Assembly (NCBI GenBank): GCA_963845755.1
Contig: CAWJTV010000034.1
Coordinates: forward strand, 544,001 to 608,000
DNA length: 64,000 nucleotides
Origin: an uncultured Planctomycetota bacterium
GTDB taxonomy: Bacteria > Planctomycetota > Planctomycetia > Isosphaerales > Isosphaeraceae
Direction: 5' to 3'
The notes under the pieces were generated by a model, which searched no databases, was not told the DNA's origin, and saw only the letters and a program-made list of their open reading frames with translations. This document shows positions 45,534-54,619 of this stretch, in pieces (position 1 is the stretch's first letter; each line of letters begins with the position of its first letter). Both the position numbers and the translations under genes were made by a program.

Positions 45534-48423
45534 TCAATCCGGTACGACCGCGTATTCGCGTCGTCCCTTGCGGACGACGATGCGAGGCGCGAGCACCTCG
45601 CGGGTGCGGCGAAGCAGCCAGTGGCCGCAGGGGACTAACAACGGCCGGACCAGGGTCGCATCGATGAGGATGCCGACCACCAGGGCGAACCCGAGCTGGC
45701 GGAGTGAGCCCAGTGGGCTGAACAGGAACGAGGCAAAGCTGGTGGCCGTGATCAACGCGGCTGAGCTGATCAGGCCGCCGGTCTGCCCGATCGCCCGGAC
45801 GATCCCGCGACGGAGTCCACGCCTCTGGGACTCCTCGTTCAGGCGGGTCATGAGGAAGACGTTGTAATCGACCCCGACGGCGACCAAGAGCACGAACAGG
45901 AAATACGGCACCTTCCAGTCGAGACCTTCCGCACCCAGAATCGTGACGAAGACCAGATGGGTTGTGCCCAGGGCAAAGAGGTACGTCAGCACCATGGTCG
46001 CTACAAGGTTGAAGCACGACAGCGGGTCGCGGAGGGCGACGAGCAGCACCAGGAACACGCCCACCGGGACGATGAACCAGCTCTGAACCTGGTCGGCGCG
46101 GGTCAGGTCGCGGATGTCCGCCGATTCGGCGTTGGCGCCGGCGACTCGCGCGGTGACCTGGATCCCCTCGTATTCACCCAGGAAGTCGTTGAGGCGGCGC
46201 CGGAGGGTCAGGACCTGGTTCATCGCGTCATTGGAGAAGATCCGGTCGGCCTGGGTCAGGTCGATCCGCGCGGTGGCCGTCGGGCGTGATGTAAGCGGCG
46301 AAGCTCTGGAGCAGCTCGGGATGCTCGTGTACGGTCTGGTCGTCGATGAGGAGTCGATCCAGCGCACGGCGGCCGACCGGATCGTTGAGGATCTCGGCGA
46401 CCTCCCGACGGGCGCGGCCGGCGCCCTCGGCGATCTGCGAGGCACCTTCAGCGGCCCGCGTCAATTCGCGCAGCAAGACCTCCTGAGGGCTCTCGATTCT
46501 CGGCGTGACCGCGGGTTTCGGCTTGATCTCACCGGCAAGGATTCCCGCCGCATTGCCCTTCGCCGGCGCAGGATTCGCACCTTCCACCGGAGCGGCCGGC
46601 GTGGGCTTCGAAGCCTTATCGGGTTTCTCCTTCGATCGGAGTATGGCCTGCGGGTTGAGGGCCTCGAAGGCGCGGCTCAGCGCCGGCAGATTCATGGCCG
46701 CCGGCATCCCCTGGCTCAATTGCATGACGGCCGATGCCTGGTTCAAGCCCGAGGCCAGCGTTTCGCCGGTGGCCTGGGCGCGGGCGACCGACGGGTCGGA
46801 CCGCGGCGTCGTGCCATCAAGGGGCTTTCCCGTCAGCGGTAGCCCGGTTGCCTCCTCCAGCCAGATGGCGGCTCGCAGCTTGGCCGCACCCTGGGTCAGC
46901 CCCTTGCCGAGTTGCTCGGCCCCCGCCTGGAGCAGGCGGAATCCGGCATTCACCTCACCGAGTCGAGAGCTCAGCCGGGCGCGCGAGAACGGCTGCGGGC
47001 TCCCCAACGGTTGCGTCGCGGAGCGCACCTCGTCGAGCCGGCGGTGGTGCGACAGCAACCGACTGATGTCGTCGATCAGCGCCAGGCCCTCCGAGTTGCG
47101 AAAATCGGCGTTCGACTCGAGCACGACCGTCAAGGGGGCCAGCATCCCCGGCTCGAACTTGGAGGCGACCAGCCGGAAATCCTCCACGGACTGCGTGCGT
47201 TTCGGCAGCTCGGTCATCAGGTCCTGGATAAACCCGGTCCGCAGCGCCAGCAGGGACAGCGGGAGCATCGCGAGGATCGTGAACAGCCAGCTCCGCAACG
47301 GCCGCGCCATCGCCGCGGCGCCGAGCCGATCCCAGAGTTCCGTCGAGGTGCCCGCCAGGCCGTCGAAGGCCCGCGGGTGAATCCGCGCCAGCAGGACCAG
47401 GAGCGCCGGCGTCAGGCTCAGCGTTGCCAGGAGCGCCAGGCCCAGCCCCATGGCCACGCTCGGCCCCGTGCTCGAGAACAGCTTGAACTTGGTCGTGCCC
47501 ATAAGGAGCAGGCCGATCATGATGGTCCCGGCGCTCGTGACCAGCGGCATGAACGATCGCGACAGCGTCGCCCGCATCGAGCCGACCGGGTTATTCCGGT
47601 TGAGATGCTCGGCGAACCGCCAGGAGAGGAACAGGCAGAAGTCGGTCCCGGTCCCGAATAGGATCGCGATCAGGAACAGCTCGACCAGCGACGAGACCTC
47701 CCAGCCGCCCCGGATCGTCCAGGCGAGCAATCCTCGCGCGATGATCACGCTGAGACCGATCGTCACCAGCGGCACGAGCGCCAGCCAGAACGATCGGTAG
47801 ACCAGCAGCAGGACGATCATCAGTAAGACGACCGTCGCCACGGCGGCCCGGTCGAGGGACGTCTTGACGTTGGCCATGTAGTCGCGCCCGATCACGGCGT
47901 CGCCCGTCCATCGGATCTCGAGCCCGGAGGGGACGCCGAGTTCCGCGGCGTGTGCCTGGTGCTTCATCCATGCGACCGCTTCGTGCGACGCCGGCGCGAC
48001 GAACGACGAGGCCAGCGATACGGCCACCAACATCAGCGTGCCATCGTGGCTGACCAGTCGCTGGGCGATCTCGGGGATCGCGCCCGGCCCGATCACGCGG
48101 AGGACTTCCCCCGGGCGGCCATCCGCCTCGAATCGCCGGGATAACCTCAGGGCGAACTGCTTGTCGGCATCCGTCAGCCCGGCCGGCCGGTGCAGCACCG
48201 CCACGACCAACGACTCATACGCCTGGTCGGGCCAGCATTGACGGACCAGCTCGGCCGCCCGGCGGCTCTCCGCGCCCGACGCCAGCATCCGCGCCTGACC
48301 CTCGGCCGCCAGACGTGTCAGATCGGGGGAGAACCAGGCAACGACCCCGGCCGCGATCAACCAGGCCGCGACGATCCAACCAGGCTTGCGGCAAACGATC
48401 GTCCCAATGACGTCCAGCGACAT
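45534..48423 (-). CDS. MMPL family (RND superfamily) transporter (frameshift near 46275)
   Basis: WTGDAVIGRD, LFGTGTDFCLFL, VAVGVDYNVFLMTR, GLISSAALIT, GILIDATLVRPLLVP. Confidence 0.88.
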
Positions 48424-48696
48424 CTCTCGACCACTCCGGGAGACCTGGGTCGCCTCGCCCCGGTTTGCCGTCTCCGGTTTTCCGTGTCCAGAATCGGAAG
48501 GTCTACTTGCTGAACGCGGAACACCGCGGCGAAGCGACGGTTTTCGCAATTTCCAGGGTTCAGGATCATCCGGGCAATCCGGAGATGTTCCGAGCAAGAG
48601 CTTGTCCAATATACAAACTTTTCATGCCCGAGATCAAGCAGAGTTGGTGTGCAGGCAGGCGGCACCGGTGCGTAAAAAATTCCGTTTGCACACATT

Positions 48697-49056: not shown

Positions 49057-50429
49057 CTACGGCGCACCCGCGCCGCGATCGGAGCGGGAGGCTTCGGCCG
49101 CCGCCCGGTCCGCGCACCACGGATGATAATCATTGCAAAAATCGATCCGTTCGCCGATGCTCGGATGGCTGGCCCGGAAGACCTTGTAGAACAGGCCGGG
49201 GCGGGGGTTGCCCAGGTTCTCCGCTTGCATCTTGGCGAACGCCTGGGCGGAGGAATGGTTGGCCCGGGTTAGATCGAGGGAGTACTTGTCGGCCTCGTGC
49301 TCCTGGTGCCGACTGTAGGCCAGGGCGACCGGGCTCAAGATCAGTGACGCCACTTCGATCAGCATGAGGACCAGGGGCACCGAGGCGATGTCCGAGAGCC
49401 GATCGAAGCCAAGCCGTCGGGAGTACCGCGCGATCAGCCAGCTTCCCGCACGGTACACGAAATACAACCCGGCGAGAACCACCAGAGAGCCGAGCAGGAT
49501 CGACCGGACGACGTGGCCCAGCACATAGTGACCCATCTCGTGACCCATGACCGCGAGCACCTCGGGCTCGTCGAATTTGTTGAGCATCGTATCCCACAGC
49601 ACGATCCGTTTTGTGCCGAGGACACCCGTCACGTAGGCGTTGACGGCGTTGGTATCGACGCTCTTCTCGACCTCGAACACCCGGCTGCCGTTGATCCCCC
49701 GCGCTCGGCCAGCGCCAGGATCGACCGCTCCAGCGCCTGGTTCTTCATCGGCCCGAACTTGTTGAAAAGGGGATCGATCCAGATCGGCTCCACCATCATC
49801 GTCGCGAACAAGAATGGCACCGCGAGCAGACCGGTGTAGAGCCACCACCGCCGAGGGCTGCGCGCGATGAGCAGGTAGGGCACCCAGGAAAACGCGAACC
49901 CGACCGCCATCATCACGGCCAGCCCGATCACCTTGTCTCCGAACCATTTGCCCAGGGTCTGGTTCGACAGGCCGTAGGCATGCAGGCGCAGATACCCCTG
50001 ATAGAAAGACAGTGGCAGATTGACCAGGAAGACAACCGCCAGATAGAGAAGCACATAGAGGCCGACGCTGAGGAACCAGTTGCCTCCCAGGCGCTGCGCC
50101 AGGCTTCGCAGTCGCGCCGAGGCTCCCGAGAAGGCCAGGGTCCCGGTCAGAAGGATCGCCCAGACCACGTTGAAGACCCATAGCCAGTTACTCGTCCGAT
50201 AAAACTCCATCGCCTTCGCGCTGGGTTCGGGTACCGGGACGGGCTGCAGCTCGTCCGGCCTCGTCGGCGCGGAAACCCTCGCGGCGCCCGGCGATCCCGG
50301 GCTCTCGCGGTCGGACGACTCGGTTTGCCCGAGGCTCGGACAAGCCACGAAGACAAGTAGCGTACCGGCAAGGACGAATGCTTTTTGGAATCGGTTCATC
50401 AGTCTTGGGAAGATTGCGCGATTCTTCAT
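49057..50429 (-). CDS. Ste24/M48A-like integral membrane metallopeptidase (frameshift near 49700)
   Basis: Signal peptide; LPLSFYQGY..HAYGLSNQT; WIDPLFNKF; NAYVTGVLGTKRIVLWDT; VMGHEMGHY; SRHQEHEAD; SHPSIGERI. Confidence 0.88.
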
Positions 50430-50483
50430 CGTGATAGGGGATCCGGACTCTCGAATCCGGAATCGTCGCCCCACTCCATCCCC

Positions 50484-51917
50484 TTAGACAATCCGATGCG
50501 TCGGCCGCTCGCCTTCGTCGGGCTCGGGCTCCGACACGACCTCGAGGGGCGGCTTGTAGTAGAAGAAGGCGACCGCTAGCGCCAGGCCGAAGACCGCCGT
50601 GAGTCCCCAGCCCAGGTAAGCCATGTACTGGGTGCGGACGAGCTGAGTCTGGAGCTCCAGCGTGGCCTTGCCCAGATCGGACTCGCTCAAGGGCGCGAGC
50701 TGGTCGAGCCGATGCTGCCGCCGATCGTTCGATTCCTGGAGGCTGGCGATCTGCTCGCGGAGCTTGGGTGCCTCCTTCGCCTCGGACTCGTTTTTTTCGA
50801 GGTCCTTCTTCGCCGATGCGAGCTGGCCGTCGAGATCGATCAGACGCTTCTCGAGGTCCCTGGCCTGGCCGCCCAGCCGCTCGGTGATCGACCGCTGGAG
50901 CGTGACCTGTCGCTGGGCCTCGTCGCGTTCTCGGGCCGTCTTGTTGTAGCGATCGAGGAACTCTTCCGGCTTGTCGCTACCAACCTTCTGGACCAACGTA
51001 TCCATCGCCAGCCGCTGGTTTTCGCCGAGGTCCTGGACTGCGCGAGCCAGGGCCAGGAAGGACTCGTTCTGGTCCTGGATCCGCGTCTGGAGCTGGTAGA
51101 GCCACATGGCCAGGGCCACGGCCAGCACGCCCAGGAACGTGCCGAGCATGCCGAAGACCGCGGCGATCTGGACCTTCTCAGCCGGTGAGGTCACGGGAAA
51201 ATGTGCAGGTCGGGTGAGCATCTTGAGGAGCTCCGCCTCGAGGCGGGGTGAGATCATGCCACCCCCGCCGCCTTCGGGATTTGGTAGTTTTTCCAGGTCG
51301 TTGACCAGTCGCGCCAGGGCGATCCGCTCGCCGCGGTCGGCCGTCAGGAAATAGCCGCCGACCTGAACCAAGCCGCCGTCGCGCCACTGGAAGAACCCGC
51401 GCGACTGGTTGATCGGGTCGACCACGTAGGCCACCTGGAGCGGCTGGGCGAAAAAATTCTGGTGGATGAACAGGTCGTGGTGCGAGAGGAAGATGCCGAA
51501 GCTCGGGTGGGTGTGATACCAGCCGACGATATCGCAATCCGGGTGGAGCCGGTCGCGCTCGCGGGTGATCTCCTCCCAGGAATCGTGCGTATAAGTGAAG
51601 CTCGCCTGGGTGTTGGCGTAATGCTTGGCCTCGAGCGACTGGGTGACCCAGACGAACGGCAGACCCGTGGCCGAGTCGAGGCACTCCTTGCCCAGCAGGA
51701 TTCCGCCGAGCTCGACGGACGTATCGCTGAGTGCGTGGCGTTCGATGGCGTCGGCGGTCCGCCGGTCGAGGAAAATCGGCAGGTCGATCGGGCCCGGGAC
51801 CTCGTAGGCCAGGCATGTGATTTTCCGGTCCCGGTCGGGGCGTTGCCGGCGCTCCGGCTCGCGGACCTTCATCTCATCGAAGACGATGTCATCCCCGCTC
51901 AACGGCTGAGTCCCCAT
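50484..51917 (-). CDS. JAB/MPN+ (JAMM) isopeptidase with two TM helices flanking a coiled coil
   Basis: VELGGILLG and VGWYHTHPSFGIFLSHHD (E...HxHx7Sx2D); TM IAAVFGMLGTFLGVLAVALAMWLY; long coiled coil; C-terminal TM YLGWGLTAVFGLALAVAFFYY. Confidence 0.9.
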   Translation of the reverse strand: MGTQPLSGDDIVFDEMKVREPERRQRPDRDRKITCLAYEVPGPIDLPIFLDRRTADAIERHALSDTSVELGGILLGKECLDSATGLPFVWVTQSLEAKHYANTQASFTYTHDSWEEITRERDRLHPDCDIVGWYHTHPSFGIFLSHHDLFIHQNFFAQPLQVAYVVDPINQSRGFFQWRDGGLVQVGGYFLTADRGERIALARLVNDLEKLPNPEGGGGGMISPRLEAELLKMLTRPAHFPVTSPAEKVQIAAVFGMLGTFLGVLAVALAMWLYQLQTRIQDQNESFLALARAVQDLGENQRLAMDTLVQKVGSDKPEEFLDRYNKTARERDEAQRQVTLQRSITERLGGQARDLEKRLIDLDGQLASAKKDLEKNESEAKEAPKLREQIASLQESNDRRQHRLDQLAPLSESDLGKATLELQTQLVRTQYMAYLGWGLTAVFGLALAVAFFYYKPPLEVVSEPEPDEGERPTHRIV

Positions 51918-53169
51918 GCCCGGTCCGATTCCCAACACCCCGGTCGCCGGCCAGAAGGAAGAACCCGGAGCTGGCTGGGCCGTCAACGCGCACGATATCG
52001 TAAGGCGGGATGCCGACGCGGGAAAGCGGTTCCTCCGCCAGGCGCGAGGAATCCTCCACCGTGCTGGCGAACTCCGGGAGGGCCGGCTTGCCACAGCTCG
52101 CGCACACGGCCTCGCTGGCGCGGACCTTGACCCGGGGCCTCATCACCCCACCACGCCAGGCGCACCGCGGACACTCGATCGCCACCACCAGCTCGCGGTC
52201 GAGGACCAGGTGCAGCGGACCGTCCAGGTGCTCCCCGGCCGCCTTCAGCAGTTCCGACACCGATGACTCATGTCCCAGCGCCAGCTCGACCGGCTCCGGA
52301 TAAGTCTCGTGGCTCAGGCAATCGTCGCGTCGCGGCAAGCGGGTGGAATAGAACTGGTTCGCCACGCCGTTGAAGACCAGGGCGCTGCCCGCCGCCACGG
52401 GGAGCCCGTGAAGCAGCTTCAACGCCTCCTGAACCTGGAGCGCGGCCATCATCGACGCGATCGTGGGCGCCGTCGGCACCTTGCCTCCCACGATCTCCTC
52501 GCGGCGAAGCAACGGACAGTTATAGCGAAGGTTCAGGAGTTGATAGTCGCGCTCCGTCATGGCGCATTCATAGCAGGCCGAATCGGGCGGGACGAAGACC
52601 TTGACGACCCCCTGGATCTCCTGGATGCCTGCGTCGATCCAGGGCGTACTCACCTTCCAGCACTGCCGGTTCACCCACAGCCGAGCTTCCCGGTTGTCCA
52701 GGCAGCCGATGACCAGGTCGACCTCCGCGAACAGGCCCAGGCCCACGTCGGTGATCACGTCGCCGTGAATCGGAATCAGCGTGATCTCGGGATTCAGCTC
52801 GCGCGTCCGCCGGGCGGCCACCTCCGCCTTGGACTGGCCGCCGTCCTCCGACCGGAACAAGACCGACCGCGACAGATTCGACGGCTCGACTTCATCCAGG
52901 TCGATCACGAAGATCGTACCCAGGCCCACCAGCGCCAGGTTCTTCAGGACCTCGTTGCCCAGGGCACCCGCGCCGACGACCAGCACCCGCGCATCACGCA
53001 GTCGCTCTTGCCGCCACCACGAGATCAATCGCAACCGGTTGTAGCGATCCAGGTCGTCGATGACCAGGGATTCCGGATCGGAATTCTTGCGATCGATGAG
53101 AACCTCCGGCGCGGTTGGCCGATCGGGCTCATTCGGCCCGTCGCGAAGCGTCTGAGGTGGTTCATCCAT
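51889..53169 (-). CDS. E1-like ubiquitin-activating enzyme (ThiF/MoeB family) with C-terminal extension
   Basis: VGAGALGNEVLKNLAL, DLDEVEPSNLSRSVLFR, CLDNREARLWVNR, ACYEC, candidate thioester Cys in RYNCPLL, CLSH, and an extra CPRC...CASC domain. Confidence 0.92.
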   Translation of the reverse strand: MDEPPQTLRDGPNEPDRPTAPEVLIDRKNSDPESLVIDDLDRYNRLRLISWWRQERLRDARVLVVGAGALGNEVLKNLALVGLGTIFVIDLDEVEPSNLSRSVLFRSEDGGQSKAEVAARRTRELNPEITLIPIHGDVITDVGLGLFAEVDLVIGCLDNREARLWVNRQCWKVSTPWIDAGIQEIQGVVKVFVPPDSACYECAMTERDYQLLNLRYNCPLLRREEIVGGKVPTAPTIASMMAALQVQEALKLLHGLPVAAGSALVFNGVANQFYSTRLPRRDDCLSHETYPEPVELALGHESSVSELLKAAGEHLDGPLHLVLDRELVVAIECPRCAWRGGVMRPRVKVRASEAVCASCGKPALPEFASTVEDSSRLAEEPLSRVGIPPYDIVRVDGPASSGFFLLAGDRGVGNRTGHGDSAVERG

Positions 53170-53295
53170 CGTTGCGATCCGCTTCCGCGTAGGGTGCGTG
53201 AAACCCACCAAGAAGTGGCCCGATCGGGGTGTGTTTTACCCACCCTATCAAGGGCCGGACGTCGTTCTCGGACCGTTCCTGCGCCGTGTTGGAAC

Positions 53296-54180
53296 TCAAT
53301 CGATAAAGACGATTTCGTCGCTCGGCGGTCGCGTCGCCTGGGGCGGTGGCTCCGGCTGCGACGCGGCGGCGGTCTCCACGATCAAGACTTCGTCCTCACG
53401 TCCGACATCACCACGAGACGGAGCGGAGGCGGCCTCGGCGGTCACCAGGGCTTGTAACTCGGGATTTGAGGGGAGGATCCTGTTGAGGAGGTCTTCGGCT
53501 TCCTCGCGACGACGCGTTGACGCCGGCTCATCGTTGGTGCCAAAGACCTTGCCGTATCGCGCGACGAACTTGCGTACCCGCTCGACCGGCCTGTTCGGTT
53601 CGGCGGCGGCCCGGGACGTCGTGGCCCCGGACGATCCGTTGCCTCGGGCCGAGGGTGCATCCGTCTTCCCGCCTGACGACTCTCCCAATCGCCCCAGCGC
53701 CGCCCGAAGATCCCGGAGTGAGCGTTGATCGGTCGGGAACAGGATCGCCGTCTGGTTGGCGACCCAAAGCGCGGCATCGCGGTTATACGGGCTCCGGATG
53801 TCGTAATTGTGGTAGCGCAGCATGTCCCAGAGCATGATGCACAGCTCATCGAGCTGGATACTGGGCACCCAGTGCGTTCCGTAGCCCCCCAGGCAAACCA
53901 TGCCGATTTCCGAGATATTCGGATGGTAGATTGGGGTCAGCCAGCGGAGCTCGGGCATCGTCCGGGGATAGGAGGAGCCCAACTTGACCTCAACATGGTG
54001 CTTCTCCAGGGACTTGATCTTGCCGTGGTCGCGCCATAACCCTCGACCCTGGAAAAGGATCCGATAATATTGCGGCGGTTCTCCCTGGGTGGTGAAGCGG
54101 AAGACCGAGCTCTCCGAGCGGAGCCGCTCCAGCGCCGCGAGGTCATTGCGGAGCCGTCGCATGCGAGGGGATTCGTACAT
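53296..54180 (-). CDS. E2 ubiquitin-conjugating enzyme (UBC fold) with a disordered C-terminal tail
   Basis: RMRRLRND, YPRTMPELRWLTPIYHPNISEIGMVCLG..W.PS, closely matching the E2 signature YP..PP...F.T.I.HPN....G.ICL...W.P; SPYNRDAA. Confidence 0.9.
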   Translation of the reverse strand: MYESPRMRRLRNDLAALERLRSESSVFRFTTQGEPPQYYRILFQGRGLWRDHGKIKSLEKHHVEVKLGSSYPRTMPELRWLTPIYHPNISEIGMVCLGGYGTHWVPSIQLDELCIMLWDMLRYHNYDIRSPYNRDAALWVANQTAILFPTDQRSLRDLRAALGRLGESSGGKTDAPSARGNGSSGATTSRAAAEPNRPVERVRKFVARYGKVFGTNDEPASTRRREEAEDLLNRILPSNPELQALVTAEAASAPSRGDVGREDEVLIVETAAASQPEPPPQATRPPSDEIVFID

Positions 54181-54319: not shown

Positions 54320-54619
54320 TCAAATCGAGCCGGCCACAACCTCGGGATAAACGATCAGATGGTCGCCGTTCTGGATCCCGCCCTCCACCAGTGTCCAGCT
54401 CTCGAGCAATCGACGGCCCCCTTCTTTGTGGTCCAGGGCGTAGCTCATCGGCTGTCCGTCGGGACTGGTCGCGGGTAGATTCATCTTGGTGATGATGTTC
54501 GGGATGATCCGGCTTACAGGCACGCTGAAGGCGATGACCGCCTTGACCGATTTGGCTCCAGTCTGATCCAGGAAGGTGACCTGGATACCACTGGGATCGG
54601 CATTTCCGCCGTATGACAT
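54320..54619 (-). CDS. ubiquitin-like (beta-grasp, YukD/EsaB-like) modifier
   Basis: 99 aa; IQVTFLDQTGAKSVKAVI..VPVSRIIPNIITKMNLP...YAL....GRRL...TLVEGGIQNGDHLIVYPEVVAG-SI resembles the Ub TL.dygI..gd.L.L pattern; GAGGAGG RBS; first gene of the E2/E1/JAB run. Confidence 0.85.
   Translation of the reverse strand: MSYGGNADPSGIQVTFLDQTGAKSVKAVIAFSVPVSRIIPNIITKMNLPATSPDGQPMSYALDHKEGGRRLLESWTLVEGGIQNGDHLIVYPEVVAGSI

Follow-up and report, generated by a model that had tools for sequence, protein, structure and literature searches.

A ubiquitin-like operon of Isosphaeraceae encodes an Rpn11/CSN5-type JAMM metallopeptidase with two predicted membrane helices and a variable helical rod

To our knowledge, the conjugation of ubiquitin-like (Ubl) proteins in bacteria has been studied almost only as phage defence, in the Bil, Bub and type II CBASS systems (CBASS signals against phage through cyclic oligonucleotides), with soluble JAB peptidases. 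The window analysed here is a stretch of 64,000 nucleotides from a planctomycete genome of 14.3 Mb whose nearest relatives carry Isosphaeraceae names. It contains a Ubl operon with a gene for a JAB peptidase that appears to be anchored in the membrane twice, and it raises the question of what such an enzyme does there. The protein is an Rpn11/CSN5-type JAMM metallopeptidase with intact catalytic residues, followed by two predicted transmembrane helices with a predicted coiled coil between them. The function that we favour, giving it a chance somewhat better than even, is that of a membrane-tethered enzyme which would both mature and remove the Ubl in a housekeeping, membrane-centred Ubl system. 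The gene and its parts, in the order of translation, are:

50484..51917, minus strand: JAB gene, 477 amino acids plus stop; JAMM peptidase whose second half is a helix-rod-helix arrangement
51333..51785, minus strand: JAMM/MPN+ core, residues 45-195 (Pfam match, alignment and Foldseek)
51255..51284, minus strand: glycine-rich linker, residues 212-221, PNPEGGGGGM (low model confidence)
51096..51167, minus strand: predicted transmembrane helix 1, residues 251-274 (hydrophobicity)
50628..51095, minus strand: helical rod, residues 275-430, with helices at 275-311, 317-412 and 414-430 and breaks near 313-317 and 416
50556..50627, minus strand: predicted transmembrane helix 2, residues 431-454 (hydrophobicity)
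50487..50555, minus strand: C-terminal tail, residues 455-477, ending ERPTHRIV (predicted local distance difference test score, pLDDT, <50)

Translation of the minus strand from 51917 to 50484 gave a frame of 477 amino acids with no internal stops. The frame opens with an ATG at 51917 and shares 29 nucleotides with the preceding gene, that for the activating enzyme (E1; stop codon 51889-51891), and this start is supported because residues 8-15 (GDDIVF.EMKV) are kept across the aligned homologues. The sequence-only reading had proposed the order JAMM domain, glycine linker, first helix, coil and second helix; every one of these elements was found in the translation, and the coordinates given for the two hydrophobic segments proved correct to within a few bases. 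The architecture is confirmed and, by the surveys described below, extended to a large family.

The alignment of 96 two-helix family members showed E69, H135, H137, S145 and D148 to be invariant and placed nearly all conserved JAB columns within residues 13-195. The E...HxH-x7-S-xx-D zinc/catalytic motif of JAMM/MPN+ metallopeptidases is complete, residues 135-148 reading HTHPSFGIFLSHHD. The Pfam JAB model (PF01398) matched residues 60-155 with 36.4 bits (cut-off 22.5, E 5.2e-9), and the Prok-JAB model gave 29.2 bits (cut-off 25), below the score of the eukaryote-type Pfam model. AlphaFold2 modelled the full-length protein with a mean pLDDT of 85.1 and a predicted template-modelling score of 0.59, the JAMM domain itself exceeding a pLDDT of 90. 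When the model was compared with solved structures using Foldseek, the closest folds included Rpn11 (5u4p_B; E 6e-11, template-modelling score 0.80 normalised to the target), the Rpn11 homologue of Caldiarchaeum (6fnn_A; E 7.8e-10), CSN5 and AMSH.

Behind the core, the linker contains five consecutive glycines (residues 216-220) and is followed by a short conserved helix (residues 224-234) just before the first hydrophobic segment. Both hydrophobic segments consist of 24 uncharged residues, and their length and hydrophobicity suffice for crossing a bilayer. Their Kyte-Doolittle maxima over 19 residues were 2.37 for helix 1 and 1.85 for helix 2, and on a summed Hessa-type scale they reached -1.29 and +0.38 kcal/mol, the next lowest value elsewhere in JAB being +10.5. 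It is plausible that the JAB domain and the C-terminal tail lie in the cytoplasm and the rod outside, in the periplasm, because the N-terminus is highly charged and does not resemble a signal peptide, Ubl and E1 are cytoplasmic (E1 chemistry requires ATP), and the flank with the most basic residues is the one after helix 2, a weak signal. The mean numbers of lysine plus arginine in the four 15-residue flanks, in order, were 1.1, 1.4, 1.35 and 2.3 (94 proteins).

The last eight residues (50487-50510) were observed to recur in other forms: Isosphaeraceae relatives end in P-x-H-R/Q-I-x, and some more distant ones in E-M/V-R-I/F-D. The extreme C-terminus after helix 2 looks like a conserved peptide, possibly a docking motif; in the AlphaFold2 model it is disordered.

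The two-helix arrangement was followed through several sets of homologues. A word-indexed search found 925 JAB relatives, the best 120 of which were 59-100% identical; almost all of these 120 were 460-483 amino acids long and covered 99-100% of the query, while the small number that depart from this length (P0034, P0044 and P0118) drift into tails rich in arginine, proline and serine that look like frameshifts. An HMMER scan of 1.84 billion cluster representatives (50% identity) gave 4862 relatives, 397 of them at E <= 1e-30. Among the best 150 representatives, 104 were taken as full-length-like, and a Kyte-Doolittle scan counted two hydrophobic helices in 94 of them, one in 6, none in 3 and three in 1. 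In the 94 two-helix proteins, the medians are 114 residues from HxHP to helix 1, 151.5 for the loop between the helices (which ranges from 89 to 207) and 34.5 for the tail. Two helices were likewise counted in 65 of the 73 complete JAB genes from named genomes, the eight exceptions comprising five genes split by frame changes (L056, L057, L104, L106 and L113), two with a weaker second segment and one truncated. The survey of homologues for the helix-coil-helix part, which the sequence-only reading had proposed, showed the two hydrophobic helices in most members of both sets.

For the region between the helices, AlphaFold2 gave the same three helices (245-311, 317-412 and 414-453) in the full protein and in residues 236-477 modelled alone (72 aligned sequences, pLDDT 89.0). 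A hydrophobic periodicity of 3.4-3.6 residues in the segment 317-412 was reached by none of 1000 shuffles; in the segment 275-311 it was reached by 3.5% of shuffles, and it was absent from the JAB core. The periodicity and the long modelled helices point to a coiled coil, and the rod of about 155 residues is predicted to be one.

The enzyme belongs to a minus-strand operon of four tightly packed genes in the order Ubl-E2-E1-JAB, with a protease gene directly downstream:

54320..54619, minus strand: Ubl, YukD-type beta-grasp protein of 99 amino acids ending ...YPEVVAG-SI (Pfam YukD 9.5e-13)
53296..54180, minus strand: conjugating enzyme (E2), UBC fold with HPN...C motif (UQ_con 3.9e-13)
51889..53211, minus strand: E1, a single ThiF-type adenylation domain of 440 amino acids (ThiF 2.2e-58)
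49057..50474, minus strand: Ste24-like M48 integral-membrane metalloprotease with M48_N and M48 domains, directly downstream of JAB

A YukD-like Ubl, a ThiF-type E1, a UBC-fold E2 and a JAB peptidase in one neighbourhood mark a eukaryote-like prokaryotic ubiquitin system, a class that also has a Prok-RING E3. By sequence, the nearest solved relative of the E2 was Ubc13/UBE2N (1.7e-10), and those of the E1 were the eukaryotic UBA7 and UBA1 (UBA7 4.7e-37), ahead of ThiF and MoeB. The open reading frame of the E2 extends to 54339, and its relatives align only from about residue 41-59; Met54 was taken as the start. The end ...YPE[VI]VAG was present in 59 of 60 Ubl genes, L058 being unreadable, and in 35 of the 60 it is followed by 2-11 further variable residues, SI in the window. 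Adenylation by E1 needs a free C-terminal glycine, as is established for ubiquitin. The Ubl-SI precursor of the window must therefore be trimmed by a peptidase, and JAB is the only Ubl-type peptidase of the operon. The M48 protein was rejected as a general Ubl-trimming protease, being present also where the Ubl already ends at glycine (L074, L096 and L098).

A candidate ligase (E3) was found at some distance. At locus L069, the gene directly upstream of Ubl encodes a protein of 288 amino acids that has a hydrophobic helix at its N-terminus and a Prok-RING_1 domain at its C-terminus. Its orthologue of 299 amino acids in the genome of the window lies about 23 kb from the operon and about 13 kb past the window end (G000:C34:621122-622021, equal to L054:5122-6021). 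Since L069 has the same gene pair directly upstream of Ubl, the likely E3 appears to have been separated from the operon by a rearrangement in this genome. The pair in question consists of the RING gene and an adjoining gene that resembles, by eye, a phosphopantetheinyl transferase.

The distribution of the system is that of a vertically inherited trait. Within the GTDB family of the window, 108 of 120 genomes and 51 of 53 genera have JAB, mostly in single copy, and 105 of the 120 genomes have Ubl; both are missing from one genus (8 genomes with a completeness of 64-98%). Across the family the Ubl is 68-100% identical, mostly 85-98%, and the identity of JAB, at 44-90%, is well below that; the conservation of the Ubl resembles the purifying selection on ubiquitin. 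The two-helix JAB occurs also in Pirellulaceae. Synteny was scored in 80 loci from named genomes, divided by operon type, each count being limited to loci with enough flank. At Isosphaeraceae-type loci the upstream genes were E1 (47/50), E2 (42/48) and Ubl (40/46), a Ste24-like M48 gene lay within 1.8 kb downstream in 36 of 47, and a Prok-RING match, obtained with a distant query, stood just upstream of Ubl in 11 of 34. Pirellulaceae-type loci also had E1 (22/23), E2 (17/19) and Ubl (16/18) upstream, together with an extra small JAB upstream (10/18) and a second E2 (15/22) and a RING gene (9/19) downstream. The pattern of the system is that of a housekeeping pathway passed down vertically within Isosphaeraceae, not that of a mobile defence island.

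The extra genes of the Pirellulaceae type follow a recurrent plan, seen at L110, L116, L118, L120, L122-L124, L126, L129-L131 and L134: the small JAB lies between E2 and E1, the second E2 is downstream and there are one or two RING genes. The Ubl genes of these loci mostly end exactly at VAG. At L050, JAB and M48 stand together and Ubl-E2-E1 apart.

A second, paralogous Ubl system is carried by the same genome. On contig 36 (L052:5700-10690) it comprises a YukD-Ubl/E1, a JAB of 371 amino acids, an FHA protein and a zinc-ribbon protein, and on contig 11 (L053:6843-10905) a zinc-ribbon protein, a Prok-RING_1 protein, a second Prok-RING_1 protein with DUF4190 and DUF2752, and an E2. In the complete genome of L032 the order is Ubl, E1, JAB, FHA, zinc ribbon, Prok-RING_1, Prok-RING_1/DUF4190/trypsin, E2 with zinc ribbon, and DUF2752, and systems of this type were found across the phylum. 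In the paralogous JAB (11 of 12 genes), a single hydrophobic helix follows HxHP at a distance of about 100 residues and leads into a helical tail that is open-ended. A quick tree put the two-helix JABs on one side of the branch from the one-helix type, with an SH-aLRT (Shimodaira-Hasegawa-like approximate likelihood ratio test) value of 89. Membrane anchoring of JAB, as predicted from these sequences, is the rule in both planctomycete types, and the second helix and the link to the Ste24-like protease mark the type of the window.

The closest characterised enzyme is the soluble Rpn11 homologue of Candidatus Caldiarchaeum subterraneum, encoded in a Ub-E1-E2-RING operon (PDB 6FNN, 6FJU). The two have in common the eukaryote-type JAMM fold, a compact set of tag, E1 and E2, and a precursor tag with extra C-terminal residues. 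The solved chains of the Caldiarchaeum protein, 148-173 residues long, contain nothing like the C-terminal half of the planctomycete JAB, which adds 240 residues (the two predicted helices and the rod); the tags differ too, that of the planctomycete being YukD-like and ending VAG, whereas that of Caldiarchaeum ends GG. In vitro, according to PMC5654768, the archaeal enzyme cleaves the propeptide of the ubiquitin precursor and deconjugates isopeptide-linked ubiquitin. Because it does both, we infer that the planctomycete JAB may likewise act in maturation and in deconjugation.

Among described systems, the closest one is a prediction. Burroughs, Iyer and Aravind reportedly predicted prokaryotic RING/E2/E1/JAB/YukD-Ubl gene neighbourhoods in a 2011 paper (Mol Biosyst 7:2261). 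Compared with those neighbourhoods, the component set of the window is alike, and its type differs by the second helix, by the order Ubl-E2-E1-JAB, by the replacement of the FHA/RING/trypsin block with a Ste24-like protease, and by being near-core in one family. It is the one-helix paralogue that is accompanied by genes for FHA, zinc-ribbon, Prok-RING_1, RING-trypsin, E2 and DUF2752 proteins. The system of the window is a variant of a kind of ubiquitin system that has been predicted but not studied. A 2012 review by the group of these authors treats such operons as mobile elements (PMC3417536), a view with which the near-core pattern found here is at odds.

Putting these results together, we favour the following function. 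The two predicted helices, joined by the rod of about 155 residues, would keep JAB attached to the inner membrane on its cytoplasmic side. There it would probably remove the two residues (SI) that follow the conserved ...VAG end of the Ubl, and would probably also take the Ubl tag off modified proteins at the membrane. The anchor might serve to place JAB beside the membrane Prok-RING E3 and the Ste24-like protease, with no part in signal sensing, and the rod may act as a spacer or an oligomerisation element.

Several observations weigh against this proposal. As many as 24 of the 60 Ubl genes stop exactly at glycine, which rules out trimming as the function for which the enzyme is conserved; in these relatives there is nothing to trim and the enzyme is retained all the same, and deconjugation is the likelier conserved role. 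No M48 gene lies downstream at 11 of the 47 Isosphaeraceae-type loci or at any of the 22 Pirellulaceae-type ones, so that a partnership of JAB and the protease is not general. The window itself holds no RING gene. The charges flanking the helices are nearly balanced, and the positive-inside count leaves the orientation undecided. Finally, the proline and glycine breaks of the rod are off-centre, with no conserved turn at the mid-point and no symmetric hairpin, and AlphaFold2 gave extended rods, not a hairpin, with fold matches that cover only a single long helix. A rod of this shape does not by itself account for both helices sitting in one membrane.

The membrane-tethered maturing and deconjugating enzyme can be extended to a more ambitious scheme, a bacterial counterpart of endoplasmic-reticulum-associated degradation (ERAD). 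In eukaryotes, Rpn11 strips and recycles the ubiquitin tag at the proteasome. By analogy, the membrane RING E3 and the E2 would tag inner-membrane proteins with the almost invariant Ubl, the Ste24-type protease would dispose of them and JAB, held by a rod like that of tetherin, would recycle the tag at the protease. We regard this as possible, though on balance unlikely.

Another reading of the rod, and an unlikely one, is that it resembles tetherin in its role. It might lie along, or bridge, closely apposed folds of an invaginated cytoplasmic membrane, acting there as a ruler or a tether and confining JAB to such sites. Across 72 sequences, proline and glycine are concentrated in two stretches of the loop, about 25-35% and 85-95% along its length, and the middle 50% is almost free of proline. 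The conserved pattern is a short helix, then a hinge, an unbroken stretch of about 95 helical residues, a second hinge, another short helix and helix 2; the loop also keeps to a length of 89-207 residues even as its sequence changes. The extended AlphaFold2 model fits such a role as well, even if monomer predictions often draw coiled coils as straight helices. Comparison of the C-terminal model by VIA-align returned generic single long coiled-coil helices, the only low-rmsd (root-mean-square deviation) matches, with Z of 7.0-7.6 over model residues of about 80-180, values that are uninformative for long helices. One of these was the ectodomain of BST-2/tetherin (3mq7_A; 99 residues aligned, rmsd 4.5), whose Z of 7.4 lies in the range common for long helices. 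Foldseek gave no match of the C-terminal model in the PDB, and the ESM Atlas no usable match for residues 225-477. The resemblance to tetherin is in layout only (an anchor, a coiled-coil rod of about 100 residues and a second anchor); there is no homology, and tetherin carries no enzyme. The second anchor of tetherin is a glycosylphosphatidylinositol lipid. Membrane invagination in this organism is, moreover, assumed from general knowledge of the phylum.

The sequence-only reading had seen in the protein a receptor-like topology that could couple an envelope signal to Ubl maturation or deconjugation, the periplasmic rod sensing the state of the envelope and switching the cytoplasmic JAB through the two helices. 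The predicted layout, with both ends inside and the loop outside, is formally that of two-helix sensors, and the conserved proline and glycine hinges beside both helices, together with the short helix 224-234, could transmit a movement. The loop itself gave this idea no support. The rod is the least conserved region of JAB (column entropy 3.08 bits, as opposed to 1.25 in the JAB core), and among 72 aligned C-terminal halves none of its columns was invariant or nearly so. The conserved folded ligand-binding domain that lies between the helices of a two-helix periplasmic sensor was not found in JAB: the loop is all-helical, neither a ligand-binding nor a globular fold was detected in it, and the Pfam and NCBIfam searches found no domain in the rod, the sole sub-threshold match, TIGR04211 (21 bits against a cut-off of 65), covering coiled coil only. 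Furthermore, the catalytic domain comes before helix 1, with no more than a tail of about 23-35 residues left after helix 2, and in the paralogous type a single helix suffices (11 of 12 genes). We consider a sensor function quite unlikely.

A role in anti-phage defence of the Bil or type II CBASS kind, with JAB as the regulator, is highly improbable. Four enzyme classes (Ubl, E2, E1 and JAB) are indeed in common, and PADLOC returned weak matches, 20 bits for JAB and, for E1, matches to E1-E2 models as well as BilD, the last of these with 29 bits over 121 residues; it found no match for E2 or Ubl. The Bil E1 is a tandem IAD-AAD-CYS protein, according to PMC11601596, whereas here E1 is separate from E2 and is a single adenylation protein of 440 amino acids. 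The separate E1 and E2 genes also stand against type II CBASS, which is marked by the Cap2 E1-E2 fusion, with no CD-NTase search made. The E2 and E1 are nearest to eukaryotic Ubc13 and UBA7/UBA1, and the genes are not patchy or mobile, being near-universal, mostly single-copy and fixed in synteny within one family. For a gene that is near-core and syntenic in its family, the Bil-like frame implied by the sequence-only reading is unsuited.

That reading had also described the JAB proteins of such systems as generally soluble, and this stood: the parts of PMC11601596 and PMC11601603 that were available mention no transmembrane JAB among the characterised Bil, Bub and CBASS peptidases. BilC of Bil systems, the JAB domain of BubCD (type I Bub) and Cap3 of type II CBASS are paired with E1 and E2 and cleave precursors and/or conjugates (PMC11601596). 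They are described there without transmembrane segments, in mobile or defence-associated operons, while the JAB of the window is predicted to be membrane-anchored and appears vertically inherited. No literature on a membrane-anchored JAMM protein or on this operon in Planctomycetota was found, nor did the 2025 review of the phylum (PMC12673574) yield any when searched by words, subscription papers and bioRxiv supplements being outside the search.

The system stands apart by its eukaryotic nearest relatives (UBA7/UBA1, Ubc13 and Rpn11), by being a near-core vertical trait and by the ubiquitin-like conservation of its tag. Its eraser, and probably the E3 and the adjacent protease too, would be membrane proteins. 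If the function that we favour is true, bacteria would possess a housekeeping, membrane-centred pathway of the ubiquitin type, and it would offer a tractable comparison for the origin of deubiquitination of the ERAD and proteasome-lid types. Cultured carriers with complete genomes (Singulisphaera, Tundrisphaera and Tautonia) make the system amenable to testing.

The weakest alternative, that a JAB gene and a membrane coiled-coil gene were joined by a sequencing or assembly error, as the sequence-only reading had allowed for, has a negligible probability and is excluded by conservation across the family: frame errors do occur in long-contig metagenome-assembled genomes (MAGs) of the clade (JAB is split in five loci and M48 in the window), but the great majority of the 120 closest relatives have a single frame of 460-483 amino acids, the architecture is kept in 94 of 104 representatives and 65 of 73 named-genome genes, and the fused frame is present in complete genomes of cultured strains, among them Singulisphaera sp. 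Ch08, Tundrisphaera sp. TA3 and Tautonia sociabilis.

A few minor features of the neighbourhood were noted. A scan for promoters and terminators gave no signal above shuffled controls. The M48 gene reads as two overlapping frames, with a frame change near 49695-49698; compared with its intact orthologue of 453 amino acids at L055, it shows a one-base slip in a run of five G (gagcgcgggggatc). Because several long-contig MAG relatives show similar slips in JAB, an assembly error is as likely here as a pseudogene. Further downstream, two overlapping open reading frames of 303 and 793 amino acids (45534-46445 and 46228-48609, minus strand) appear, on inspection by eye, to be parts of a single membrane-transporter gene interrupted by another frame change.

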